64,000 nt of DNA, taken from assembly GCA_947588815.1 (NCBI GenBank), contig CANQAG010000004.1, positions 26,193-90,192 on the forward strand, written 5' to 3'. Shown in pieces: positions 8,132 to 36,973 of the stretch. This DNA comes from an uncultured Bacilli bacterium. GTDB taxonomy: Bacteria; Bacillota_I; Bacilli_A; RFN20; CAG-449. A program made the position numbers and the translations under genes. Every line of letters begins with the position of its first letter. Position 1 is the stretch's first letter. A model generated the notes under the pieces. That model worked only from the letters and a program-made list of their open reading frames with translations, was not told the DNA's origin and made no database searches.

Positions 8132-11100
8132 TTAAGCTTTAAGAAGCATATTATCGCGTTTTAAAATTATTTGTTTTTCTGCCAATTCATCAATAATGCC
8201 GTTAAGTCGAGTTATAGAAGACATCCTAGCTTTCTGGTAACCAAGAGAAAGCAACATCATTTTAACGACCACATCAGCTTCGATTTCTTTTAAATTATTG
8301 ACGATTTTGATAATTCCGGTTTTTAATTCGATATCGGTAATGCTATCGATATCACGGAATTCTTTGGTGTTCCTTGCTACAATTCTAAATTCAATATTGT
8401 GATCGATTAAATATATAAAATCATCTTTAATCGCAATTTTTTGTTCTTTTACCATCTCTTCAAGCAAATCATTGATTTTATCTTGATTTTCGAAAAGATT
8501 TAAAAGTTCGTCTTTTTTAAGTGGTGCAGAAAGTTCAATGATTTTTTCAACGAGGTTTTCTAATGTCTTATGAGCTTTATCGTCAATCATATAGAAAACT
8601 TCGCGAGGAGAAAGATAATGCTTAAATAACACTTCCATCGCAAGTTTACTCGTGGTTTTTTTAGATGGAACGTCACCTAGCTCATCGGAGTTGATGACAA
8701 TAAAGTGTTTTAATGCCATATATTCCTCTTCATTCATATAGAAGGAAAGAGGAATTACACGATAAGGAACGTAACCTAAATCTCTGATTTCGTTATCGGT
8801 TTTTTCAATTGATTGCAAGGCGGCCTCTAAGGAGTTAGATGATAATTTATCGATAATGATACCGGTCGCCATTTTCGATTTAGCCGGGCGTACTAAAATA
8901 TCGATATAACCGCTTTTGGTTTTTGCGTCTTTTACAATTTCAAAGCCATCTTGCTCTAATCGATTGTAAAGATAAGATTTAAATTCACTTGAACGACGCT
9001 CGTTGTTCAACCCTTTAGCGTCATATGAAGTAGAAATATATTCTACTTTTTCATAACATTTCGAAGTGGCAAACAAGAAAGAGTTTTTATCAAGTAAAGG
9101 TTTTCGCGCGTCTTCAAAGTTTCCTTTTAAATAATCGTCGTCAAACACAACGAATTGGTCGCCAAGAGCAAGAATGCCAATAGCATCTTTCATTAAAGTC
9201 TCTTTACTTGGTAAAACAAAGACGCAATCGAAATGATAAATCTCATTTGTTAACAAGGAAGGAACTTCTTCAATCGGACACAAAAGTAATGATTTAAGGT
9301 TATAGATGCTTTCTCTTGCTTCATATGCGATTGTTTTTAATGGTACGCTTGAAGGATTTTCATAAGCGGAAGTTATAAATGGCAACTCATAATTTTTGAG
9401 GTTTAAACCATTGTTGTGCAAATATTTTTGAATATTGTTTACAAAGAGATTTTGCATTGCCTCAATCCGTTTGCAACTAAGTTCTTCGTTTTGCTTCATC
9501 TCTTCTAAGAAATTTGCAAACGAGAAGTCAGTTAGCATTGAATTTTGGCTAATCGTGTAGTCGATTAATTGACGATAAAAAGCTTTTAAAAATATTTGTT
9601 CACTTTCTTTGACCAAATCCAATTCGAATAATTCATCGCCTAATTTATCGATAAGTTTGTTGAGCTTAATTCTGGCTAAATAGAAATCAAGATATTCATT
9701 GATAGAGGCAAAATGCAAAGAAGCATCGACCATTTTGTTATAGAATTCTTTTAAGTCCATTTCACCGAAGTTACAAAGCTTTTTGTCGAAATAACTTTGC
9801 AAAATTTCGACACTATCTAAAGTAGTATTAAACTCACGTTGCAAGAAATATCTAAAATCTAACAAAGCCTTCATAAGGACAGTATCATCAAATTTTGTGA
9901 CATCAAACTTTGAAATATCGACATTGTGCTTAGTAAGGTATTTGACATTACGGCGGTATTCTTTGACTTGAGTCAATAATTGATCGATTTTAGTAATATC
10001 AAAATTGCGATCTGAATAATATGCTTTAAATGATAATGGCAAGTTTTGAATCTTATCTTCAATTTGTCTTTCTCTAGTGCGATAAAGATCTAAAGAAATC
10101 ATCATATCGACCATTTTGTTTTCGGCTAAACGAGAAGATTTTTTGAATTTGGTATTCACTAATGTGACATCTTTAGGAGTGTATGATGATGTGACAAACA
10201 ATTGAATCATCTCATTTGGAATTTTAAAAACATCGGAAGTGTATGTATCTTCTAATTCACGAGCAAGATTAGCGTTTTCATCAATCGCTTTTTGAATCTC
10301 TAACACTAAATTATACGATTGTTGAAGATTTTCGTCTTTAAACCAACTTAAAGGTGGAAGATTTTCATTGTCGCTTAAAATAGCAACCATATTAAATTCG
10401 GCTTTTAATTGTTTCAATGTTTTTGGCATTGGGAATCCAAAGCGGTGATGTAAATTGTTGATATGAGATTTTAAAATCTTCAATTGTTCGGAAAGAAAAA
10501 TAATGTTTTCTTGCAAAGGTTTATAATCCTCTTTGACCATTCTTTTTCTTGAAAAGCCATAGAATGGGTGATCTTTAATTGAATTCTTAATGCTTTGAGC
10601 TGAATTTTTAAAATCACCGATGGCATTTATATATTCATCGATTTTTTGATTGTCAATATGAGCGATATTGGGAATTGTTATTGAAAGATCGGGGTATTTA
10701 TTAAAACGATAATATTGCTCTAGCATTTTATTTAATGACAAATTCATCGGAGGATTGCTAACTCGAAGGCTATTAATTATCTGTTTATATTTGTTTTTAA
10801 GATCGTAATATTCTTTGATTGATTCTCCGAGATCTTCAGTAGATAAGCCTTGGCGACTACGATAACTATCGTAATCGGCGAGTGTTTTTAAAAGAACTTT
10901 CTTATCTGTGGAAACTGAGTTGAAATCTAAATAATAAGGAGCCATCGATGAATTTTCAATCGTTTCCTTCAAACGTTGATATTGCGCTTGATTTTCATAA
11001 ACGACAAGAGTTTTGCTTCCGTTTAAAAGGAAAGCTTCTAAAGAGTTCTTCAATAAGTGAAGTTCGTTAATTTTAGACGAAGTTCGGATATACAAATTGT

Positions 11101-11884
11101 CGCGATCAGCAATTTTTTTAACGATTCGATATTCATCGAAATCTGTATCTAGCAACGATAAGTAACGGGAATTAATTCTTGTTTTTTGATTTTTTCTAAA
11201 ATTAAAAAATTCACTATTGAAATAAGTGATGTTTTTAACGAGATTATTGGAAGCGATTTTTTCATTATTGTTTAAAATGAACATTCTTTTATCGTGAAAA
11301 GTTAAATCAAAGTTTGCTAAAAAACATCCATTGTTGACAGACCAACTTTGAGCTTTGATTTTAACTGCGACAAAATAGAGATATTCGCCTAATGAGAAAT
11401 TTTTATCAAGAGGATAGTTTAACGAAATTTTAAATTCTTTAAGTAATTTATGGATTAGGGCATCGTTAAGTCTGACTTCTTTATTGATACTCGAGATGTA
11501 GTAACTACCATTTTCTTTTGTGATTTTTACTGGAACAAAAACTAAAGGAGCGGTTAAAACCTTTTCTCTAGCATAGTCGCTATAGTAATCTAAAAGTCCA
11601 AAAGTAGCATATAAAGTATGAACTGAATGTGCATTGTACCACTTTTCTGATTTATCAGCTAATTTTAATAAAACCGAATCGAGATCTTTGCCTTCAAAGT
11701 AGCTGGCGGAAATCTTAATTTTTTCTTCTTTCAAAAGACTTTCGAAAATTTTTTCATAGTCTTCATTTGTTATTCTAACGGAATTTTGACTTGTCAATTT
11801 ATAGTCGACAACCATGCTATCGATGACATCTTTTTCTAATTGGTCAACCCAAGGGTTTACATTTTTGTTATCCATAATAATCAC
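8132..11884 (-). CDS. large (1250 aa) helicase-related protein with degenerate ATPase motifs and a restriction-endonuclease-like C-terminal region (DUF4011 / Upf1-like SF1 / DUF3320-type architecture suspected)
   Basis: No intact Walker A (closest LNGSKT); motif-II-like block FDCVFVLPSKET...ALGDQFVVFDDD lacks DEAS/DEAD; GYIDILV...IIIDK REase-like block; long uninterrupted ORF with good codon usage. Confidence 0.5.
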   Translation of the reverse strand: MIIMDNKNVNPWVDQLEKDVIDSMVVDYKLTSQNSVRITNEDYEKIFESLLKEEKIKISASYFEGKDLDSVLLKLADKSEKWYNAHSVHTLYATFGLLDYYSDYAREKVLTAPLVFVPVKITKENGSYYISSINKEVRLNDALIHKLLKEFKISLNYPLDKNFSLGEYLYFVAVKIKAQSWSVNNGCFLANFDLTFHDKRMFILNNNEKIASNNLVKNITYFNSEFFNFRKNQKTRINSRYLSLLDTDFDEYRIVKKIADRDNLYIRTSSKINELHLLKNSLEAFLLNGSKTLVVYENQAQYQRLKETIENSSMAPYYLDFNSVSTDKKVLLKTLADYDSYRSRQGLSTEDLGESIKEYYDLKNKYKQIINSLRVSNPPMNLSLNKMLEQYYRFNKYPDLSITIPNIAHIDNQKIDEYINAIGDFKNSAQSIKNSIKDHPFYGFSRKRMVKEDYKPLQENIIFLSEQLKILKSHINNLHHRFGFPMPKTLKQLKAEFNMVAILSDNENLPPLSWFKDENLQQSYNLVLEIQKAIDENANLARELEDTYTSDVFKIPNEMIQLFVTSSYTPKDVTLVNTKFKKSSRLAENKMVDMMISLDLYRTRERQIEDKIQNLPLSFKAYYSDRNFDITKIDQLLTQVKEYRRNVKYLTKHNVDISKFDVTKFDDTVLMKALLDFRYFLQREFNTTLDSVEILQSYFDKKLCNFGEMDLKEFYNKMVDASLHFASINEYLDFYLARIKLNKLIDKLGDELFELDLVKESEQIFLKAFYRQLIDYTISQNSMLTDFSFANFLEEMKQNEELSCKRIEAMQNLFVNNIQKYLHNNGLNLKNYELPFITSAYENPSSVPLKTIAYEARESIYNLKSLLLCPIEEVPSLLTNEIYHFDCVFVLPSKETLMKDAIGILALGDQFVVFDDDYLKGNFEDARKPLLDKNSFLFATSKCYEKVEYISTSYDAKGLNNERRSSEFKSYLYNRLEQDGFEIVKDAKTKSGYIDILVRPAKSKMATGIIIDKLSSNSLEAALQSIEKTDNEIRDLGYVPYRVIPLSFYMNEEEYMALKHFIVINSDELGDVPSKKTTSKLAMEVLFKHYLSPREVFYMIDDKAHKTLENLVEKIIELSAPLKKDELLNLFENQDKINDLLEEMVKEQKIAIKDDFIYLIDHNIEFRIVARNTKEFRDIDSITDIELKTGIIKIVNNLKEIEADVVVKMMLLSLGYQKARMSSITRLNGIIDELAEKQIILKRDNMLLKA

Positions 11885-26582: not shown

Positions 26583-26636
26583 TCCCAAGGTTTAGCATAA
26601 GGCGTTATAGAATTGTTAGAAAATATGGGAGATCGT

Positions 26637-29600
26637 ATGGAACTAATAGATAATACATTAAAAACATTACGAGATGATATGGCAGGTGAAATAAAGAAAG
26701 GCAGTAAATTATCCATTGCGGCCGCTTGTTTTTCTATTTATGCATTTCAAGAGTTGAAAGAAAAATTACAAGATATAGATGAACTTCGTTTTATCTTTAC
26801 ATCACCTGCGTTTGTTACGGAAAAAGCAAAAAAGGAAAAACGAGAGTTTTATATTCCGAGACTTAATCGAGAACGTAGTCTCTATGGTACAGAATTTGAA
26901 GTGAAACTGAAAAATGAACTTAATCAAAAAGCGATAGCAAAAGAATGCGCTGACTGGATAAGAAAAAAGGTCACTTTTAAATCGAATGTCACCAATGAAA
27001 ATATGATGGGTTTTATCAACCTTGACGACAAAAACTATATGCCTATCAATGGATTTACTACTATTGATTTGGGATGTGAAAAAGGAAATAATGCTTATTG
27101 CATGATTCAAAAAACAGGTATGCCTTATGCAAAAGCGTACATGGATATTTTTGAAAAACTTTGGAACGATCAAAATAAACTTCAAGAAGTTACAGATGAA
27201 GTTATTAATAGTATTACAGCAGCATATAACGAAAATTCTCCCGATTTCATTTATTTTGTTACCCTTTACAATATCTTTAATGAATTTCTTGAAGATATAT
27301 CTGAGGACTTGTTGCCAAATGAAGCATCTGGTTTTAAGGATAGTAAGATTTGGAATATGCTTTACAATTTTCAAAGAGATGCAGCTCTTGCTATTATCAA
27401 TAAGTTGGAAAAGTTTAACGGCTGTATTCTTGCTGATAGTGTAGGGTTAGGTAAAACTTTTACGGCTCTCGCCGTTATCAAGTATTATGAAAATAGAAAT
27501 AAATCTGTTCTTGTCCTTTGCCCGAAAAAATTAGCCAACAACTGGAATACATATAAAGACAATTATGTAAATAATCCTATTGCGGAAGATAGGCTTCGCT
27601 ATGACGTCCTCTATCATACGGACTTAAACCGTACACAAGGAACTTCTAATGGCCTTGATTTAAGTAGGCTGAATTGGGGAAATTATGATCTAGTTGTAAT
27701 AGACGAATCTCATAATTTTCGTAACGGAGGAAAAGTAATAGAAAATCCTGATGATGACGATAAGGAAAATAGATATGTAAAACTTTTAAAAAAAGTTATC
27801 CGTGCCGGTGTGAAAACAAAGGTTCTTATGTTATCTGCAACACCGGTTAATAATAAATTTCTTGATTTGAAAAATCAACTTGCACTTGCCTATGAAGGCG
27901 ATACTAATTTAATTGACGAAAAATTGAATACTTCTCGAACCATTGATGAGATATTTAAAAACGCTCAAAGAGCTTTTACTACTTGGAGCAAATGGAAACC
28001 GGAAGAAAGAACTACCGAAAATTTGCTTCGGATGTTAGACTTTGATTTCTTTGAAGTTCTTGATAGCGTGACGATTGCTCGCTCCCGCAAGCACATTCAA
28101 AAATATTATGACACTACAGACATTGGTAAATTTCCTACAAGATTAAAACCAATTTCTCTTCGCCCACAACTTACTGATTTGAAATCGGCCATCAACTATA
28201 ATGAGATATTTGAACAGTTAATGCTTCTAACTCTTACAATTTATACGCCATCTCATTTTATCTTACCTAGTAGGATGGAAAAATATGCTGAAATTTTCAA
28301 AGATAACCGAGTAAATATTGGGTTTACACAAGCAAATCGTGAACAAGGTATTCAACGTTTAACAGCGATTAATTTAATGAAGCGCATGGAAAGTTCGGTA
28401 TATTCGTTTAAACTTACGCTTAATAGAATAAAAGATTTAATTAGCAGCACACTTCAATCAATAGATAATTATGACCATTCACAATCATTAACTTTTGAAT
28501 TAACCGATATTTCAAACATCGATGAATTTGATGATGAGGATCAAAATAACGATGAAATCTTTTCTATTGGAAAAAAGATTAAGATTGACATTGGTGATAT
28601 GGATTATAAATCGTGGCGCGATAGTCTTGCAAAAGACGCTGAAATTTTAGAACTTCTTTCATTAATGATTGAGGATATTACGCCTAAACATGACGCTAAA
28701 CTTCAAGAACTTTTTAGGGTGATTAAAGATAAATTTGCACAGCCTATAAACGATAACAATAAAAAAATTATTATTTTTACGGCTTTTACGGATACTGCAA
28801 AGTATTTATACGATAATGTGAGTGAATATGTTCTTTCTAATTATGGATTAAATACGGCGATGATTACCGGATCGATCGAGGGTCGTACTACGGTTCCTAA
28901 GTTGCGTTGTGATTTAAATACAGTGTTGACGTGTTTTTCCCCGATTTCAAAGAACAAACAACTTCTTATGCCAAATGACAATACCGAAATAGATATTCTG
29001 ATTGCAACGGATTGTATCTCTGAAGGACAAAATTTACAAGACTGCGACTATCTTATTAATTACGATATTCACTGGAATCCGGTACGAATTATTCAAAGAT
29101 TTGGCCGTATTGATCGTATTGGGAGTCACAATCAATATATTCAACTTGTAAATTTTTGGCCGGATGTTTCACTTGATGATTATATCAATTTAAAAGCAAG
29201 AGTTGAAACTCGTATGAAAATCGTTAATTTGACAGCAACAGGTGATGACAACATTCTTAGTGATGAAGAAAAAACAGATTTGGAATATCGTAAAGCCCAG
29301 CTTAAGCGTTTGCAAGACGAAGTTGTGGACATCGAGGATATGACAAGTGGAATATCAATAATGGATTTGGGATTAAATGAGTTTCGGTTGGATCTTTTAG
29401 AATATATGAAATATAACGATAATCTTGATAAGACTCCATTTGGGCTTCACGCCGTTGTGCCGGCAAATGATGAAATGCCGGCGGGAGTTATTTATGTCTT
29501 GAAGAATCGATCAAACAATGTAAATATCAATAATCAAAATCGGTTACATCCGTTTTATATGGTGTATATCTCTAATGAAGGTAAAGTGATATGCGATCAT

Positions 29601-29885
29601 CTTTCACCTAAAACAATGCTAGATAAGATGCGCTATCTATGCAAAGGTAAAAATGAACCTTATAAGGATCTTTGTAATAAGTTTAATCAAGAGACAAAAG
29701 ACGGGAAGGATATGCATAAATTTTCAATTCTACTCGGTAATGCAATATCCTCTATTATAGAGATAAAAGAAGAAAGCGATATCGATTCGTTCCTTAGTGG
29801 TGGACATGTTAGTTTTATCGACGCTACTATCAAAGGTTTGGATGACTTTGAACTTATTTGCTTTTTGGTTGTGAAGGAAAGATAA
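26637..29885 (+). CDS. SNF2-family (SF2) ATPase/helicase with ~270-aa N-terminal non-helicase domain
   Basis: Walker A ADSVGLGKTFTA, motif II VVIDESHNFRN, helicase-C block ILIATDCISEGQNLQDCDYLINYDIHWNPVRIIQRFGRIDRIGS; start placed at ATG 26637 (GGGAG 5 nt upstream; TTG 26613/ATG 26625 possible). Confidence 0.85.
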   Translation: MELIDNTLKTLRDDMAGEIKKGSKLSIAAACFSIYAFQELKEKLQDIDELRFIFTSPAFVTEKAKKEKREFYIPRLNRERSLYGTEFEVKLKNELNQKAIAKECADWIRKKVTFKSNVTNENMMGFINLDDKNYMPINGFTTIDLGCEKGNNAYCMIQKTGMPYAKAYMDIFEKLWNDQNKLQEVTDEVINSITAAYNENSPDFIYFVTLYNIFNEFLEDISEDLLPNEASGFKDSKIWNMLYNFQRDAALAIINKLEKFNGCILADSVGLGKTFTALAVIKYYENRNKSVLVLCPKKLANNWNTYKDNYVNNPIAEDRLRYDVLYHTDLNRTQGTSNGLDLSRLNWGNYDLVVIDESHNFRNGGKVIENPDDDDKENRYVKLLKKVIRAGVKTKVLMLSATPVNNKFLDLKNQLALAYEGDTNLIDEKLNTSRTIDEIFKNAQRAFTTWSKWKPEERTTENLLRMLDFDFFEVLDSVTIARSRKHIQKYYDTTDIGKFPTRLKPISLRPQLTDLKSAINYNEIFEQLMLLTLTIYTPSHFILPSRMEKYAEIFKDNRVNIGFTQANREQGIQRLTAINLMKRMESSVYSFKLTLNRIKDLISSTLQSIDNYDHSQSLTFELTDISNIDEFDDEDQNNDEIFSIGKKIKIDIGDMDYKSWRDSLAKDAEILELLSLMIEDITPKHDAKLQELFRVIKDKFAQPINDNNKKIIIFTAFTDTAKYLYDNVSEYVLSNYGLNTAMITGSIEGRTTVPKLRCDLNTVLTCFSPISKNKQLLMPNDNTEIDILIATDCISEGQNLQDCDYLINYDIHWNPVRIIQRFGRIDRIGSHNQYIQLVNFWPDVSLDDYINLKARVETRMKIVNLTATGDDNILSDEEKTDLEYRKAQLKRLQDEVVDIEDMTSGISIMDLGLNEFRLDLLEYMKYNDNLDKTPFGLHAVVPANDEMPAGVIYVLKNRSNNVNINNQNRLHPFYMVYISNEGKVICDHLSPKTMLDKMRYLCKGKNEPYKDLCNKFNQETKDGKDMHKFSILLGNAISSIIEIKEESDIDSFLSGGHVSFIDATIKGLDDFELICFLVVKER

Positions 29886-29888
29886 CTT

Positions 29889-30494
29889 ATGCTGGGATTA
29901 CCAAAAGCGACGGAAGTAAATAAACAGCTTCCAAAAAGTGCGATTTATTCAAAGTTCAAAATGAATATGACAGCCAAAGACCGAATTGATCGAGATATTT
30001 CACGAATTTACATCACTAATGAAGTAACTGCATCAAAAATCAACTTGAAAGATGGAGCGGAAATAAAATCCTTTTTCGTAATGTCAGTACTACTTAAACG
30101 TAAAGACTTTAATGAAAAAAATATGATTGCCCTTTCTAAGTTGATAATGCAAAATATAGTGTTAGTTCTTGAATATAAAAGTGAAGGCAAAATAATGGTG
30201 TGTCGAAATGGGAAACTTTTACAGACCGAATGGCAACCAAAGGAAAAACTTTTGCTTGAAATCAAAGGTTTGAACCTTGATATGGTATGGGATAATATCA
30301 TCATTCAAATAGGTGGATTGACTATTACATCTGGCAATACCATAGATGAACAAATAGATATTGAAGAGCAAAAAAACAAACTTCAAAAAGAGATTGATAA
30401 ACTTGAAAAACTCGCACGAGTTGAAAAACAACCTAGAAAGAAGTTTGAGATGCACCGACAAATTTTGAAATTAAAGCAGGAGGAATCGGAATGA
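29889..30494 (+). CDS. DUF4391-like small protein (helicase-associated), translationally coupled to SNF2 gene
   Basis: 201 aa; starts 3 nt after SNF2 stop with AAGGAAAG RBS; size/charge pattern and coiled-coil C-term resemble DUF4391 partners of SNF2 helicases (assignment from memory, unverified). Confidence 0.5.
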   Translation: MLGLPKATEVNKQLPKSAIYSKFKMNMTAKDRIDRDISRIYITNEVTASKINLKDGAEIKSFFVMSVLLKRKDFNEKNMIALSKLIMQNIVLVLEYKSEGKIMVCRNGKLLQTEWQPKEKLLLEIKGLNLDMVWDNIIIQIGGLTITSGNTIDEQIDIEEQKNKLQKEIDKLEKLARVEKQPRKKFEMHRQILKLKQEESE

Positions 30495-30925
30495 ATGAAA
30501 AATTTTATGAACTCTGTTATAAAATCTTGCATCGGTATTTAAATCTTCCCGATGTGGCAGATACATTTCGAAGCATACTAAAAGGAATAGATTACATAAA
30601 AAAATTTCCATGGGATATAAATGATTTTTTATGTAAAAAAAATGAAATTATCTCTTATATTCAAGATGTGCGCTGTAAAAATATAATTGATGGATATAAC
30701 GAAAATCCATATTTATTAACTCCTACACCATTTAGCAAAAAGCTTTCTGACACAAATCAAAATGAATTATATTCGAATCTAATCGGAGAAATTCCAAGAC
30801 TTATTCTTAAAGGAATGCATCAAGTTATTAAAAATTTATATAACATTAAAGATGATAATGAACTTACAGAAGAATTAGTACAAGAAAACATTACTGTTTT
30901 AATGAAATACAAACTAGTAAAATAG
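30491..30925 (+). CDS. hypothetical protein (144 aa), translationally coupled (ATGA overlap)
   Basis: AGGAGG 7 nt upstream; no recognisable domain. Confidence 0.5.
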   Translation: MNEKFYELCYKILHRYLNLPDVADTFRSILKGIDYIKKFPWDINDFLCKKNEIISYIQDVRCKNIIDGYNENPYLLTPTPFSKKLSDTNQNELYSNLIGEIPRLILKGMHQVIKNLYNIKDDNELTEELVQENITVLMKYKLVK

Positions 30926-30939
30926 GGAGGATAAAGGCG

Positions 30940-32832
30940 ATGAATAAACTTAAAATGCAAACTATAAACAAAGCAGATGAGAATTTCAAGAGATTGACGG
31001 AAATGTTTCCGAATGCTATTACAGAAACGATAGATGAAAACGGCGAAGTTGTTCGTGCTATTGACAAAGATGTTCTTATGCAAGAAATCTCTTGCAAAGT
31101 AGTTGAAGGGCGCGAAGAACGTTATCAATTTACTTGGCCGGACAAGAGAAAATCTGTTCTGCTTGCAAATGCGCCTATTAACAAAACACTCCGTCCTTGT
31201 CGTGAAGAAAGCGTGAATTTTGACAACACCGAAAACCTTTATATTGAGGGTGATAATCTTGAAGTGTTAAAGCTTTTGCAGGAAACTTATCTAGGCAAAA
31301 TTAAAATGATATATATTGATCCACCTTATAATACGGGTAATGACTTTGTGTATGAGGATAATTTTACTCAAAGCACTGATGAATATCTTGCAAATAGCGG
31401 ACAATATGACGATCAAGGCAATCGGTTATATCAAAATACAGAAAGTAATGGTAGATTTCATACTGATTGGCTGAACATGATATATCCAAGGTTGAAACTA
31501 GCAAAAGATTTGCTCCGAGAAGACGGTATGGTCTTTATTAGCATTGACGATAACGAACAAGAAAACCTAAAGAAAATTTGTGATGAAATATTTGGAAGTG
31601 CTAATTTTGTTGCTAATTTTATATGGAAAAAAACAAGCAACCCAAATTCAACAGGAAACAATATTGGTGTTGAACACGAATACATTATTTCATATTCGAA
31701 AAGTAATAAGTATATTTTAAATTCTTTACCATTGGATAAAGAAGATTTTGATAAATATATAGGTAAAGATGAATTCTTAGAAGAAAGAGGACCATATAAA
31801 CTTGTTGGTTTAAATAAGACGGGAACTGTAAATGATTTAAGAGCTAATTTAATGTATGATATTGAAGCACCAGATGGTAGTATAATTAAACCAAATCCAA
31901 GATGGAGATGGTCATTAGAAAAATTTAACAAATGCAAAACAGAAAATAGAATAGTATTTATTAAATATAATGAAAAATGGAGCGTCTCGTATAAACAATA
32001 TTTAAATGAAGATACTGAAGGCAATATTGTAGCTCGAGGAAAGTTAATTAAAACAATTTTTAGTGATAATGGTAGAACAACTGATGGTACATTGGAAATA
32101 AATAGTTTATTAGGAAAGGGTTATTTTGATTTTCCAAAACCAAAAGATTTAATAAAAAAACTACTTTTCATATCTTCGAAAAAAAATGATATTATCCTCG
32201 ATTTCTTTTCCGGCTCTGCTACAACCGCTCATGCTGTTATGCAACTCAATGCCGAAGATGGAGGCAACCGAAAGTTTATTATGGTACAGCTTCCCGAAGT
32301 ATGCGATGAAAAAAGTGAAGCCTATAAAGCAGGTTATAAGAATATTTGCGAAATCGGAAAAGAACGTATCCGTCGAGCAGGTAAAAAAATCAAGGATGAA
32401 AATCCACTTACAACGCAAGATCTTGATATTGGATTCCGTGTTTTGAAGTGTGATACATCAAATATGAAAGATGTTTACTATAATCCCAAAGATATCGAAA
32501 TTTCATTGTTTGAAAACGATGATAACAATATCAAAGAAGATCGCACACCGGAAGATTTGTTGTTCCAAGTAATGCTCGATTTAGGAGTGTTGCTTTCTTC
32601 TAAAATTGAAGAAAAAGAAATTGCCGGAAAGAAAGTATTTAATGTTGCTGATGGTTTCCTCATTGCTTGCTTTGATGAAAATGTAACAGAAGAAACGATA
32701 AAAGAAGTTGCTAAGCAAAAACCATATTATTTTGTCATGCGAGATAGTTCTATGGCAAACGACAGCGTAGCTACCAACTTTGAGCAAATTTTTGCTACAT
32801 ATAGTCCGGATACGGTAAGGAAGGTGCTGTAA
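30940..32832 (+). CDS. mod: Type III restriction-modification Mod subunit, N6-adenine DNA methyltransferase
   Basis: 630 aa; IYIDPPYNTGNDF (DPPY motif IV), FxGSGTT-like AdoMet motif FFSGSATTAHAV; GGGAGG RBS. Confidence 0.9.
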   Translation: MNKLKMQTINKADENFKRLTEMFPNAITETIDENGEVVRAIDKDVLMQEISCKVVEGREERYQFTWPDKRKSVLLANAPINKTLRPCREESVNFDNTENLYIEGDNLEVLKLLQETYLGKIKMIYIDPPYNTGNDFVYEDNFTQSTDEYLANSGQYDDQGNRLYQNTESNGRFHTDWLNMIYPRLKLAKDLLREDGMVFISIDDNEQENLKKICDEIFGSANFVANFIWKKTSNPNSTGNNIGVEHEYIISYSKSNKYILNSLPLDKEDFDKYIGKDEFLEERGPYKLVGLNKTGTVNDLRANLMYDIEAPDGSIIKPNPRWRWSLEKFNKCKTENRIVFIKYNEKWSVSYKQYLNEDTEGNIVARGKLIKTIFSDNGRTTDGTLEINSLLGKGYFDFPKPKDLIKKLLFISSKKNDIILDFFSGSATTAHAVMQLNAEDGGNRKFIMVQLPEVCDEKSEAYKAGYKNICEIGKERIRRAGKKIKDENPLTTQDLDIGFRVLKCDTSNMKDVYYNPKDIEISLFENDDNNIKEDRTPEDLLFQVMLDLGVLLSSKIEEKEIAGKKVFNVADGFLIACFDENVTEETIKEVAKQKPYYFVMRDSSMANDSVATNFEQIFATYSPDTVRKVL

Positions 32833-33854
32833 TGGAAAATAAGATACAAAGTGAGATTCTTATTTATCAAACTGAAAAAGGAAATACAAAACTTGATGTA
32901 CGTCTAGAAGATGAAACTGTTTGGCTAACGCAGGCACAACTAGTAGAACTTTATCAAACTACAAAATCGAATGTAAGTGAACATATTAAGCATATCTTTG
33001 AAGATGGTGAATTGGATGAAACATTAGTTGTTCGGAATTTCCGAACAACTGCTTCTGACGGAAAAAAATATAACACAAAATATTATAACTTAGACATGAT
33101 AATTTCACTAGGATATCGTATTCGTAGTATAACGGCAACGCATTTTAGAAAATGGGCGACAGAACGTTTAAAAGAATATATTATCAAAGGTTTCACAATG
33201 GATGATGAGCGTTTAAAAGGGAATGGCGGCGGACAATATTGGAAAGAGCTGCTTGCAAGAATTCGTGATATTCGCTCATCTGAAAAAGTACTTTATCGTC
33301 AAGTACTTGATCTTTACGCTACAAGCGTTGATTACGATCCAAATAGTGAAATATCGATTGAATTTTTCAAAATTGTGCAGAACAAATTACATTATGCAGC
33401 TCATGGTCATACTGCTGCGGAAGTGATCTATGAACGAGCTGACGCTAATAAGCCATTTATGGGGATGAAAAGTTTTAAAGGAGATTTTCCGACTCTTGCC
33501 GATGCGAAGATTGCTAAAAATTATCTTAATGAGGATGAACTAAAAGTGTTAGGTAATCTTGTTTCGGGATATTTTGATTTTGCAGAAATTCAAGCAATCC
33601 GAAAGCACCCGATGTATATGAAAGATTACATAGAGAATCTTGATTCTATTCTTTCCGCGACTGGCGAAAAACTTTTACTTAATGCTGGAAAAATCAGTCA
33701 CCAAGAAGCTATAGATAAAGCAATAGCGGAATATAGAAAATATCAAGTGCAAACCCTTTCTCCTGTCGAAGAAGTGTATCTAGAAATGGTAAAAAATACA
33801 GAAAAGACAATTAAAAAACTTACGAAAAATAGTGAAAAAGGAGAGCAAAAGTGA
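32832..33854 (+). CDS. RhuM-family (virulence protein RhuM/Fic-DOC-like) protein embedded between mod and res
   Basis: 340 aa; N-terminal EILIYQTEKGNTKLDVRLEDETVWLTQAQLVELYQTTKSNVSEHIKHIF typical of RhuM family; start overlaps mod stop (TAATG). Confidence 0.8.
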   Translation: MENKIQSEILIYQTEKGNTKLDVRLEDETVWLTQAQLVELYQTTKSNVSEHIKHIFEDGELDETLVVRNFRTTASDGKKYNTKYYNLDMIISLGYRIRSITATHFRKWATERLKEYIIKGFTMDDERLKGNGGGQYWKELLARIRDIRSSEKVLYRQVLDLYATSVDYDPNSEISIEFFKIVQNKLHYAAHGHTAAEVIYERADANKPFMGMKSFKGDFPTLADAKIAKNYLNEDELKVLGNLVSGYFDFAEIQAIRKHPMYMKDYIENLDSILSATGEKLLLNAGKISHQEAIDKAIAEYRKYQVQTLSPVEEVYLEMVKNTEKTIKKLTKNSEKGEQK

Positions 33855-36800
33855 AATTCAATTTTAAAATACAACAGTATCAAACTGACGCTGTGAATGC
33901 AGTTGTTAAAGTTTTTGCCGGTCAGGGTTTTAGGGAAAAAATAAACTATATTCGCGATACTGGAAAACAGATTGCTAATGATCATCAGCAAACACAACTT
34001 ATTTTCGATAATAATGAAAAATACGATTGGTATGATCCGTTAAACGATACTGGCTATAAAAATGCACCTTTGGAACTTTCCGATGAAGAACTTTTAAGTA
34101 ATATTAAAAACCTGCAAATCGAAAATAATATTAAACAATCGGTTTCACTGAATAAAGAATTGGGGCAATGTTCTCTTGATATAGAGATGGAAACCGGTAC
34201 TGGCAAAACATATGTGTATATTAAGACGATGTTTGAACTAAACAAGCTGTACGGATGGAGCAAGTTTATTGTCGTTGTACCCTCCATCGCTATCCGTGAA
34301 GGAGTGAAAAAGTCCTTTGAAATCACGATAGATCATTTTATGGAATATTATGGTAAAAAAGCTCGTTTTTTCGTTTACAATAGTAGTAACTTATCACAGC
34401 TAGATAACTTTTCTCAAAGTTCCGGTATCAATGTGATGATTATTAACACGCAAGCTTTTGCTTCCTCTTTAAAGGAAGACGGAAAAAGTAAAGAAGCCCG
34501 TATTATTTATTCTAAACGAGATGAATTTGGTTCCCGTCGTCCAATTGATGTAATCAAAGCAAATAGACCTATTATCATTTTGGATGAACCGCAAAAAATG
34601 GGTGGTGATGTCACACAAAAGGCACTTAAAAACTTTAATCCACTTTTTTCTCTTAATTACTCTGCTACTCACGCTAAACAACATAATCTCATATATGTGC
34701 TTGACGCTCTCGACGCTTTCAACGAGCGCCTCGTGAAGAAAATTGAAGTAAAAGGTTTTGAAGTTAAAAATTTTCGAGGAACGGATGGCTACCTCTATTT
34801 AGAGAAAATTGTCCTTTCTTCAAAAAATCCGCCGATGGCAAAAATCGAACTTGAAATCGGATATAATAAGTCCATAAAACGTGAGACGAGACTATTAGGT
34901 GTCGGGGATGATCTATATTATGTCTCGCAAAAGATGGAACAATACAAAGGGTTTACGATTTCCGAAGTAGATCAGTTGCGTGGAACTGTTACATTTACTA
35001 ATGGTAATGTCATAGCTGTTGGGGAAATAGTAAACGATGTGTCTGAGAAAGATATGCGTCGTATTCAAATAAGAGAAACGATACTTTCTCATTTCGAAAA
35101 AGAAGAAAAGCTTTTTAATATGGGAATTAAATCTTTGTCGTTATTTTTTATAGATGAAGTAGCTAAATATCGCCAATATGATGAAGATGGTAACGAGATA
35201 TTAGGCGAATATGGAAAAATATTTGAACAAGAATATATTAATGTTCTCAATGAGTACATCACCATATTTGATACACCTTATCAAAAATATCTCCGCTCTA
35301 CTTGTAGCGATGTTTCATCTGTACATAAAGGTTATTTCAGTATTGATAAAAAGACCGGCAGAAGTATTGATAGTCAATTAAAAAGAGGCAGTGAGTTTTC
35401 AGATGATATTTCTGCTTATGATTTGATACTCAAAAACAAAGAACGTTTGCTGTCATTTGACGAACCTACAAGGTTTATCTTTTCTCACTCAGCGCTCCGT
35501 GAAGGTTGGGATAATCCCAATGTGTTCCAAATTTGCACTTTGAAACATTCTGATAGTAATACCACAAAGCGTCAGGAAGTTGGTAGAGGACTGAGACTTT
35601 GTGTCAATCAATTCGGCAACCGAATGGATGTTGAAACTCTTGGAGACAATGTTCACGACGTGAACCTCCTTACCGTAATTGCTAGTGAAAGTTATAAGAC
35701 CTTTGTGTCTGATTTACAAAGTGACATCAAGGCGGTTCTTTATGATAGACCGACAGTAGCAACGAGTGAATATTTTGCTGGGAAATGTGTAAAAGTTGGT
35801 GATTGTTTCACTACTATTGACGATAAAATTGCTAATAAACTTGAATATTATCTCATACAAAACAAGTATGTTAATATAGAACGCAAGGTGACAGATAAAT
35901 ATCGCGAAGATGTGGCAAACGGAACATTAGTACCACTTCCAGATGATCTTGCTCCAATGGCAGAGGGTATTCATAAGCTTATTCAATCCGTCTATGACGA
36001 CAGTATGTTGGAAAGTATGTTTACTGATGGTCACGAGTCTAAAATTATGGACAATCCGCTGAATGAAAATTTTGCTAAAAAAGAATTTCAGGCACTTTGG
36101 AATGAAATCAATCGTAAGTATGCCTATACAGTTAGCTTTGATAGTGAGGAACTGATAAAAAAAGCGATCGACTACATCGATCAGAAACTATTTGTTTCTG
36201 AATTACAATACACAACGACTATCGGAAGGCAGAAAGACAAGATGAACGAAAATGAAATTGAAAACCTAACTTCGTTCAGCAACGAAAAAACGAGAACCCA
36301 AACGTTGAAACATACTGAAGCAAGCAACGTAAAATATGATCTTATTGGAAAAGTAGCGGAAGGTACTATTCTTACAAGAAAAACTGTAGCAAGGATATTG
36401 AAAGGAATTAGGAAAGATAAGCTTAAGATGTTTAGCTATAATCCTGAAGAATTTATATCAAAAATAATAAAACTCATTAAAGAGCAGAAAGCTACAATGA
36501 TTGTTGAACACATTTCCTACAATCAAATTGATGGAAAGTATGATAGCACGATTTTTACTGCTGAAAAAACTACAGTTAGATTTGATAAGGCATATCTTGC
36601 CAAAAAAGCGATTCAAGATTATGTATTTATAGATGGAACGGCAGAAAATAGTATTGAAAGAAGATTCGCTAAAAGTTTAGATGAAGCTGATGAAGTTTGT
36701 GTCTATGCTAAGCTACCGAGAACTTTCCAAATACCGACACCAGTGGGTAACTATTCCCCTGATTGGGCGATAGCTTTTTATGAAGGTAAAGTAAAACATA

Positions 36801-36973
36801 TTTTCTTTATTGCTGAAACGAAAGGTACAATGGAAAGCTTGAATCTGCGACCAATTGAACAGGCTAAGATTTCATGTGCAAAAAAGTTGTTTAACGAAAT
36901 GTCTACAAGCAAGGTAAAGTATCATGAAGTTGATAGTTATACAAAATTGCTTAATGTAATAGAGATGCTTTAA
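33851..36973 (+). CDS. res: Type III restriction enzyme Res subunit (SF2 helicase + C-terminal PD-(D/E)xK nuclease)
   Basis: 1040 aa; Walker A ETGTGKTYV, DEPQ (motif II ILDEPQK), C-terminal PDWAIAF...IAETKG nuclease block; GTG start at 33851 with AAGGAGAG RBS overlapping RhuM stop (GTGA). Confidence 0.9.
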   Translation: MKFNFKIQQYQTDAVNAVVKVFAGQGFREKINYIRDTGKQIANDHQQTQLIFDNNEKYDWYDPLNDTGYKNAPLELSDEELLSNIKNLQIENNIKQSVSLNKELGQCSLDIEMETGTGKTYVYIKTMFELNKLYGWSKFIVVVPSIAIREGVKKSFEITIDHFMEYYGKKARFFVYNSSNLSQLDNFSQSSGINVMIINTQAFASSLKEDGKSKEARIIYSKRDEFGSRRPIDVIKANRPIIILDEPQKMGGDVTQKALKNFNPLFSLNYSATHAKQHNLIYVLDALDAFNERLVKKIEVKGFEVKNFRGTDGYLYLEKIVLSSKNPPMAKIELEIGYNKSIKRETRLLGVGDDLYYVSQKMEQYKGFTISEVDQLRGTVTFTNGNVIAVGEIVNDVSEKDMRRIQIRETILSHFEKEEKLFNMGIKSLSLFFIDEVAKYRQYDEDGNEILGEYGKIFEQEYINVLNEYITIFDTPYQKYLRSTCSDVSSVHKGYFSIDKKTGRSIDSQLKRGSEFSDDISAYDLILKNKERLLSFDEPTRFIFSHSALREGWDNPNVFQICTLKHSDSNTTKRQEVGRGLRLCVNQFGNRMDVETLGDNVHDVNLLTVIASESYKTFVSDLQSDIKAVLYDRPTVATSEYFAGKCVKVGDCFTTIDDKIANKLEYYLIQNKYVNIERKVTDKYREDVANGTLVPLPDDLAPMAEGIHKLIQSVYDDSMLESMFTDGHESKIMDNPLNENFAKKEFQALWNEINRKYAYTVSFDSEELIKKAIDYIDQKLFVSELQYTTTIGRQKDKMNENEIENLTSFSNEKTRTQTLKHTEASNVKYDLIGKVAEGTILTRKTVARILKGIRKDKLKMFSYNPEEFISKIIKLIKEQKATMIVEHISYNQIDGKYDSTIFTAEKTTVRFDKAYLAKKAIQDYVFIDGTAENSIERRFAKSLDEADEVCVYAKLPRTFQIPTPVGNYSPDWAIAFYEGKVKHIFFIAETKGTMESLNLRPIEQAKISCAKKLFNEMSTSKVKYHEVDSYTKLLNVIEML

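Follow-up and report, generated by a model that had tools for sequence, protein, structure and literature searches.

RhuM as a recurrent cargo at the mod-res junction of a Type III restriction-modification operon

The subject of this work is a gene of the RhuM family that is lodged between mod and res, the genes for the methyltransferase and the restriction subunit of a restriction-modification (R-M) system of Type III, in a 64,000-nucleotide (nt) stretch of the genome of an uncultured Bacilli bacterium (GenBank contig CANQAG010000004.1, positions 26,193 to 90,192 of the forward strand; this entire stretch is hereafter called the window, and coordinates are counted from its first letter). RhuM at this junction is best described as a recurrent occupant of a cargo slot and not as a one-off insertion: among related loci, some carry RhuM between mod and res, some carry unrelated genes at the same position, and in others mod runs directly into res. 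The gene itself is intact and evolves under strong purifying selection. We consider it likely that RhuM, a match to the single-gene defense entry PDC-S05 of PADLOC, is a self-sufficient accessory defense or toxin cargo at the mod-res junction of a four-gene host core with two cargo slots.

An intact rhuM gene between mod and res

The operon consists of six genes arranged head to tail (those for the SNF2 helicase, the DUF4391 protein, a 144-amino acid (aa) open reading frame (ORF), Mod, RhuM and Res), with intergenic distances from -4 to +14 nt. The genes and the sequence elements discussed below are:

26613..29885, + strand: SNF2 family helicase, 1090 aa, TTG start as listed; the first core gene (Pfam SNF2-rel_dom, Helicase_C, ResIII)
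29889..30494, + strand: DUF4391 protein, 201 aa; the second core gene (Pfam DUF4391, E = 1.7e-26)
30491..30925, + strand: 144-aa ORF in the slot between the DUF4391 gene and mod, with a 4-nt overlap with the DUF4391 stop
30940..32832, + strand: Type III methyltransferase Mod, 630 aa (Pfam N6_N4_Mtase; PADLOC MTase_III)
32817..32824, + strand: Shine-Dalgarno sequence AAGGAAGG for rhuM, within the last mod codons, 7 nt ahead of the RhuM ATG
32832..33854, + strand: RhuM family gene, 340 aa, ATG start (Pfam Virulence_RhuM; PADLOC PDC-S05)
33026..33050, no strand: palindrome of 12+12 nt with one central base, internal to rhuM, codons 65-73
33838..33845, + strand: Shine-Dalgarno sequence AAGGAGAG for res, within the last rhuM codons, 5 nt ahead of the res GTG
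33851..36973, + strand: Type III restriction subunit Res, 1040 aa, GTG start (Pfam ResIII, DEAD, RE_endonuc; PADLOC REase_III)

Both ends of rhuM overlap a neighboring gene. The mod stop codon TAA (32830-32832) and the RhuM ATG (32832-32834) have a single base in common (ctgTAATGg), and the RhuM stop codon TGA (33852-33854) and the res GTG (33851-33853) form a four-base GTGA overlap. An earlier note on this DNA, made from the sequence alone, had described a RhuM gene overlapping Type III mod and res on both sides, and the ORF, its coordinates and the Pfam and PADLOC matches bear this description out. No terminator-like site was detected on the + strand within 26613..36973, and promoter-like matches in the same interval are rarer than in shuffled sequence. 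Because the + strand contains no internal terminator-like site and a Shine-Dalgarno sequence stands ahead of each start, rhuM is likely to be expressed as a part of the R-M operon, the natural reading that the earlier note had also adopted. The G+C content is even over the operon and its flanks (0.29-0.36), with no compositional break, and the flanking genes are chromosomal housekeeping genes, namely, that for UDP-glucose dehydrogenase upstream, and those for FMN reductase and flavodoxins downstream. A transposon-like insertion of rhuM was considered and rejected, given that there are no flanking direct or inverted repeats and no integrase nearby.

The same locus is exactly present in two European Nucleotide Archive (ENA) metagenome contigs, and an independent NCBI assembly (L165; here and below, L with a number denotes a compared locus) has the order SNF2-DUF4391-Mod-RhuM-Res, with both overlaps and the GTG start as in the window. 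That L165 repeats the overlaps, the order of the genes and the GTG start, and that the locus is present in the two ENA contigs, shows that the arrangement is real and does not reflect a chance ORF. The GTG at 33851 is the true start of res, as the N-terminus, (M)KFNF, is conserved and aligns with ATG-started orthologs.

The earlier note had allowed that a RhuM hidden Markov model might fail to match this protein, which is not the case: Pfam Virulence_RhuM (PF13310) aligns at 354 bits (cut-off, 33.7; E = 5.3e-106; residues 66-308 to model positions 2-248 of 252), and the PADLOC PDC-S05 model is matched over its full length (E = 9.7e-162; residues 5-328 to positions 4-327 of 330). All columns that are invariant among 20-61 homologs are present in the window protein. 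Its homologs are 75-88% identical across phyla, with 75% identity between Firmicutes, Campylobacter and Bacteroidota. Between the window and L165, divergence is parallel in RhuM (86% identity), Res (84%) and SNF2 (88%), with the nonsynonymous distance (dN) at 0.06-0.10 over the three proteins (0.082 for RhuM) and synonymous sites saturated. Thus, the gene is under strong purifying selection, and given the identities and the pattern of nonsynonymous and synonymous change in the comparison with L165, RhuM is a long-standing, selected part of this operon lineage.

The mod-res junction as a cargo slot

A Res-centered scan of metagenome contigs, in which the best 80 loci were analyzed (Res 51-82% identical to that of the window), yielded 68 loci that hold both mod and res. 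In 38 of these, mod and res are adjacent, 15 carry RhuM at the junction (the RhuM ORFs of L087 and L088, masked by gene selection, were counted by hand), and the remaining 15 have other cargo or a gap. Dereplication at 90% Res identity leaves 51 loci, of which 30 are adjacent, 7 carry RhuM and 14 fall in the other category. These data split the earlier assertion that an insertion in a Type III pair is less commonly noted: it holds for the literature, where, among the papers searched, "RhuM" and "type III restriction" were not found together, and fails for the sequences, given that RhuM is present in 15 of the 68 related loci.

The other genes found between mod and res, all on the + strand, are DUF1016/YhcG nucleases (3 loci), Schlafen AlbA_2 proteins with HATPase_c_4 (3 loci), an Abi_C protein, a PDDEXK_3 nuclease, a 1017-aa SMC/AAA_21 protein, a nucleoside deoxyribosyltransferase-like protein and a 23S_rRNA_IVP protein; a Shedu SduA_C protein and a DUF2971 protein each share the slot with RhuM. 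The cargo other than RhuM consists of well-known defense-island genes. Two loci, L132 and L154, have a mod-res gap of 0.7-1.5 kb without a sizeable ORF, which may be decayed cargo, and L100 encodes, besides the RhuM in the slot, a second RhuM downstream of res (8279..9343; 57% identical to that of the window).

Alignment of the junctions with and without an insert delimits the cargo by its ORF to the base. The 3' end of mod (...GTAAGGAAGGTGCTGTAATG or ...AAGGAAGGTGCTGTAATG) and the junction (...gtaaggaaggtgctgTAATG) are conserved across the loci. Where mod and res are adjacent, mod runs into res via the same TAATG junction: in L085, L129, L141 and L142, all without an insert, the mod 3' end leads straight into res ATGAAATTTAATTTT, encoding MKFNF, and in the window, L165, L084, L099 and L123, the same conserved end continues into the cargo gene. 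The Shine-Dalgarno sequence within the end of mod, which is part of the conserved sequence, thus serves res where there is no insert and the cargo where one is present, and in the cargo-bearing loci, the cargo has a GGAG/GGAGG-like ribosome-binding site of its own just ahead of res. The comparison with mod-res loci lacking the insert that the earlier note had proposed, extended here to the 68 loci and their junction sequences, therefore identifies RhuM as cargo and not as a pseudogene. The claim that the insert forces res to use a GTG start does not survive the same comparison: res starts within an ATGA overlap at the RhuM-res junctions of L086 and L177 (a Thiodictyon plasmid), and GTG starts occur without any insert (L117) and next to an unrelated 266-aa cargo (L163, Massiliimalia timonensis).

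Repeated acquisition of RhuM and its other genomic contexts

The mod-res slot is occupied by RhuM proteins of three clades with pairwise identities of only about 45%, and the relationships of these clades do not follow those of Res. The Res proteins of the window and L086 are 80% identical, with RhuM at only 44%; for the window and L078, it is the other way around, with Res at 48% and RhuM at 68%. The sequences thus indicate that the RhuM and Res phylogenies disagree. The nearest relatives of the L078 RhuM come from Type I and Type ISP loci, and those of the window RhuM are solo genes. A distant, two-gene Type III system on the Thiodictyon plasmid pTs485 (L177, 13304..18912; Mod 40% and Res 35% identity) also has the order Mod-RhuM-Res. 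Given the clades that are discordant with Res and the Thiodictyon case, RhuM entered mod-res junctions at least three or four times. The Thiodictyon operon adjoins a Wadjet-like set of genes (DUF3322, an ATP-binding protein, DUF4194 and DUF3375), and because it lies directly beside these, the locus is within a defense island.

A RhuM-centered scan with one genome per species, from which the best 80 loci (63-76% identity) were analyzed, offers a complementary view. Only about 9 of these 80 adjoin an R-M system: five RhuM genes are within Type I operons (L028, L072, L075, L079 and L082), in L020, a divergent Type I system is found alongside RhuM, L076 has RhuM next to a large N6_Mtase-containing protein, one locus adjoins a Type ISP enzyme, and in L078, RhuM is between Type III mod and res. 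The remaining RhuM genes stand alone, some beside housekeeping genes and many beside defense genes, including those for STAND NTPases, OLD, AAA_21+DUF4435 and Schlafen proteins. On annotated plasmids, RhuM follows hsdM with overlaps of 4-8 nt.

The RhuM protein

RhuM is a large family, with 39,285 clusters at 50% identity (E<=0.001), whose molecular function is stated to be unknown and whose name derives from the phenotype of a mutant in Salmonella pathogenicity island 3 (SPI-3) (PMC7449626). It has been proposed to act as a toxin in R-M operons and neighborhoods (PMC3710099), and links to R-M operons along with the toxin proposal also appear in PMC9881135, so that the association and the suspected toxicity that the earlier note mentioned are indeed in the literature. 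One PDC-S05 gene, expressed alone in E. coli, has been reported to reduce plating of phages T7 and T5 about 1000-fold, with protection against T4 also reported (bioRxiv 10.1101/2024.09.26.614923).

Two AlphaFold2 runs (mean predicted local distance difference test score (pLDDT) 45.8 and 56.0) gave a model that is usable and confident for the N-terminal domain only (approximately residues 20-110), which is predicted to adopt a winged-helix-like, strand-helix-helix-wing arrangement. Its closest matches by fold are DdrC, a DNA-binding protein, and winged-helix regulators, all weak and none significant; the N-terminal half also shows a weak match to Pfam Bro-N (E = 0.014). The C-terminal two-thirds of the protein is helical and highly conserved, and holds the invariant polar residues of the family, among them R145, R148, S150, E151, Y155, D167, Y168 and Q183-N184-K185, along with the invariant T194-A195-A196-E197 and K229-N230-Y231. 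This pattern of conserved polar residues suggests an enzyme or another effector.

Two proposed affinities of RhuM were examined and rejected. The protein had been called Fic-DOC-like, which is at odds with the searches: neither half produced a Fic or Doc (Fido) match in Pfam at E<=10, and the Fic motif HxFx(D/E)GNGRxxR is absent, the closest RhuM stretch, LHYAAHGHTAAE, lacking the GNGR/NKR core. Homology with E. coli DinD, a lead that stems from a CDD name in PMC9881135, was not supported either, with an hhalign probability of 0.2% for the RhuM profile against DinD; DinD carries a Bro-N domain, compared with the weak Bro-N match of the RhuM N-terminal half.

The SNF2-DUF4391-Mod-Res core

The host system of RhuM is itself larger than a mod-res pair. 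Mod is identified as a Type III methyltransferase by Pfam N6_N4_Mtase (PF01555; E = 8e-37) and by a full-length match to PADLOC MTase_III (E = 2e-232). Likewise, the Pfam domains of Res and a match to PADLOC REase_III (E = 7e-290; model positions 1-984, from residue 1) identify it as a Type III restriction subunit; with 398 bits against the cut-off of 564 for NCBIfam NF012027 (type III endonuclease), Res is a relative and not an equivalog of that family. In the window, res does not follow mod directly, as in the canonical Type III order, given that rhuM intervenes, with the probable coupling chain kept. The SNF2 helicase matches the PADLOC model C3a139, "HKD+Snf2" (E = 1e-123). Assignment of the operon to DISARM was rejected, as the DrmD models scored 155 bits against a cut-off of 610, and no genes for DrmA, DrmB or DrmC are present in the operon.

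Among the 39 related loci with at least 5 kb of sequence upstream of mod, 34 have the SNF2 and DUF4391 genes there. In 16 of these 34, extra DNA is present at the DUF4391-mod junction, where AAA_13, KAP NTPase and other genes make up a second cargo slot. The four-gene core without cargo is found on E. coli IncFIB plasmids, and an Aeromonas plasmid has both slots filled, with an ATP-binding protein between DUF4391 and mod (slot 1), and an AAA ATPase and DUF4276 between mod and res (slot 2). To judge from these comparisons, which span Firmicute metagenomes as well as E. coli and Aeromonas plasmids, SNF2 helicase, DUF4391, Mod and Res are a conserved, widespread four-gene core with two cargo-bearing junctions. 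In the literature searched, DUF4391 receives passing mentions in only two papers; there is essentially no literature on it. Searches of Pfam, PADLOC and NCBIfam yielded no match for the 144-aa ORF in the first slot of the window (30491..30925), which was otherwise encountered only in the metagenomic twin of the locus, L001.

In a sub-lineage of the related loci (L133, L134 and L144), the SNF2 helicase gene lies after res and not ahead of mod, with no DUF4391 detected upstream. About 15 kb upstream of the operon, on the - strand, the window contains a 1250-aa ORF (8132..11884) with DUF4011 and an MTES_1575 restriction-endonuclease-like domain that may be a defense-type helicase-nuclease; in L005, L012 and L014, RhuM is flanked by STAND proteins of the same length, but these are unrelated, and their identification with this ORF was rejected.

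A covarying palindrome within rhuM

The rhuM gene of the window contains a perfect 25-nt palindrome, AGTTGTTCGGAA-T-TTCCGAACAACT, at 33026..33050 (codons 65-73, VVRNFRTT), where the AlphaFold2 model places the first strand of the predicted wing. The segment is palindromic at the same position in RhuM genes of all clades examined (L003-L177 included), with different arm sequences, such as GTTGTTGCAAA/TTTGCAACAAC (encoding VVAKFATT), AACCTGTCGGAA/TTCCGACAGGTT (TCRKFRQV), AACTATCCGGAA/TTCCGGATAGTT (TIRKFRIV) and AACTGTCAAGAA/ACTTGACAGTT (TVKKYLTV); altogether, 30 different arms occur among 90 distinct homologous segments. The palindrome is present in RhuM genes of Enterobacter, Thiodictyon, Roseicitreum, Aliarcobacter and Rhodobacter; the copies from S. 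suis, L. salivarius and Salmonella have partly decayed versions of it (9-10 of 13 pairs).

Covariation was assessed in a gapless 42-nt alignment of the 90 distinct segments. Paired cells account for 92.9%, compared with 72.5 +/- 0.8% in shuffled alignments, the number of double-change cells is 257 against 77.6 +/- 15.7 in shuffles, changes on both sides were found in 12 of the 13 pairs, and sliding the partner by 1-3 columns reduces the pairing to 16-44%; both the shuffle and the slid-partner controls are known to be weak for related sequences whose structure is derived from the same data. The variety of the arms and the mirrored amino acid changes are hard to explain at the protein level. On the evidence of the alignment, compensatory, protein-altering changes maintain the palindrome in distant RhuM clades.

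The RNA of the segment folds into a 12-bp stem (-16.2 kcal/mol). Because G.T mismatches (22) are about as frequent as A.C mismatches (18), a hairpin in the sense-strand RNA is not specifically favored over an element acting at the DNA level, and an explanation by sense-strand RNA structure only is accordingly disfavored. The palindrome matched no Rfam family, and a literature search on it returned no relevant paper. Possible readings include an operator or cruciform bound by the winged helix of RhuM, a hairpin that limits expression, a signal for mobility or recombination, and concerted, functionless evolution of the two arms through template switching.

From these observations, two linked possibilities emerge, which we deem rather unlikely. 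The mod-res and DUF4391-mod junctions of this essentially undescribed system may be dedicated cassette-exchange junctions, at which ORF-exact defense cargo is swapped by recombination between conserved flanks, with the ribosome-binding site passed on from gene to gene; and the palindrome, 25-27 nt long and conserved between phyla through compensatory changes that alter the encoded wing, may be a functional nucleic acid element, that is, a cruciform or hairpin that is bound by RhuM itself or that controls the expression, mobility or activation of RhuM. If the latter were true, the same bases would encode the DNA-contacting residues of RhuM and its own target site.

A second defense layer and the alternatives to it

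Under the explanation that we favor, a RhuM cargo entering the junction would take over the ribosome-binding site in the last mod codons that normally belongs to res, and would give res a new one within the last rhuM codons. With the coupling chain from mod through rhuM to res thus kept, RhuM would be produced whenever the R-M enzyme is. RhuM would most likely provide a second, self-sufficient layer of defense and not a subunit of the restriction enzyme, with a predicted DNA-binding, winged-helix N-terminal domain joined to a conserved, putative effector domain.

Several points weigh against this explanation. Both locus samples are the best 80 matches of the respective scan and not exhaustive surveys. 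The C-terminal domain, with pLDDT of about 40-55 (mean 56 overall), is not modeled reliably, and sequence searches of the PDB with two RhuM profiles found no related solved structure. The single experimental report of phage defense is a preprint and concerns a different family member. Finally, the tight coupling and the position immediately after the methylase gene, in Type I as well as Type III operons, would also fit a functional link to the R-M system.

Such a link could take the form of a guard, analogous to PrrC: RhuM would be held inactive by Mod and Res, and the toxin freed when a phage inhibits or overwhelms the R-M complex. The presence of RhuM, with stop/start overlaps, within three kinds of R-M operons (Type I, ISP and III) is compatible with this scenario, coupled translation would link the stoichiometry of RhuM to that of Mod and Res, and there is the precedent of PrrC itself (PMC12707154), with RhuM noted in the same neighborhoods as PrrC (PMC3710099). 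However, most RhuM genes in this clade lack an R-M neighbor, a PDC-S05 gene is reported to be protective on its own, many unrelated genes occupy the same slot, and the discordance of the RhuM and Res trees, by which no long coevolution of the two proteins is evident, also argues against a guard, so that we regard it as unlikely. Alternatively, RhuM could belong to the R-M system itself, in a regulatory or structural role, for example, as a DNA-binding controller setting the timing of res expression or modulating cleavage, as might be suggested by the winged-helix-like N-terminal domain with its weak Bro-N match, by the location of rhuM directly between the methylase and nuclease genes, and by the intragenic palindrome, which could be an operator. 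This is highly improbable given that mod is coupled directly to res in 56-59% of the orthologous systems, that nucleases, ATPases and Abi-like genes are interchangeable with RhuM in the slot, that RhuM is usually solo, and that its large, nearly invariant C-terminal domain exceeds what a controller protein needs.

We give the least credence to RhuM being a selfish or neutral passenger of a recombination-prone, well-expressed junction, or a virulence factor, as its name implies. The family is indeed huge and highly mobile (39,285 clusters; 75% identity across phyla), its contexts are very varied and include housekeeping neighbors, the conserved palindrome could serve mobility or maintenance, and the name does come from the Salmonella SPI-3 mutant phenotype. 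Nevertheless, the strong purifying selection, the enrichment of defense genes among the neighbors and the one experimental report of phage protection speak against a mere passenger, and for either version, the host appears to be a low-GC Firmicute of gut or rumen type, in which the locus lies amid chromosomal housekeeping genes with no integrase.

Relation to known systems and implications

The closest parallels to the second defense layer that we envisage are the Type I hsdM-rhuM-hsdS-hsdR operons on plasmids of Aliarcobacter cryaerophilus, Rhodobacter xanthinilyticus and Roseicitreum antarcticum. These share with the window a gene of the same family just downstream of the methyltransferase gene, 4-8 nt overlaps on both sides and the internal palindrome, whereas the window system is of Type III, with SNF2 and DUF4391 upstream, and RhuM lies between the methylase and the nuclease-helicase instead of between the M and S genes. 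The single-gene RhuM candidate system PDC-S05, matched by the window protein over the full length of the model, has mostly stand-alone relatives in defense-rich neighborhoods; in contrast, the window rhuM is not stand-alone and is probably coupled to the genes of another defense operon. PrrC in the EcoprrI Type IC locus is likewise an accessory gene embedded in an R-M operon, where it acts as a second line of defense (PMC12707154), but PrrC is an ABC-ATPase plus HEPN protein, with no sequence or domain relationship to RhuM, and a PrrC-like dependence on the R-M enzyme is doubtful for RhuM given its many solo occurrences. The hmaABC operon hotspot of Halomonas also combines a Snf2-helicase defense operon with varied defense inserts at its junctions in most loci (PMC11232893); its core genes are different, and the inserts there are whole systems (Septu, PARIS), as opposed to the mostly single ORFs placed exactly stop-to-start that are found here.

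Accessory defense genes in R-M operons have already been documented for Type I. New here are the Type III context, a ribosome-binding site that is handed over exactly at the ORF boundary, the four-gene host system with two slots, and the covarying intragenic palindrome. The embedding of accessory genes known from Type I thus extends to Type III, with a precise ribosome-binding-site hand-over. RhuM is among the largest defense-island families of unknown mechanism, and the loci described here supply natural isogenic comparisons, in which the same restriction system occurs without cargo, with three RhuM clades, or with other defense genes at the same base. Such comparisons make the question of whether RhuM is an additional layer, a guard or a regulator directly testable, and the covarying palindrome offers a concrete handle on the control or movement of RhuM genes.

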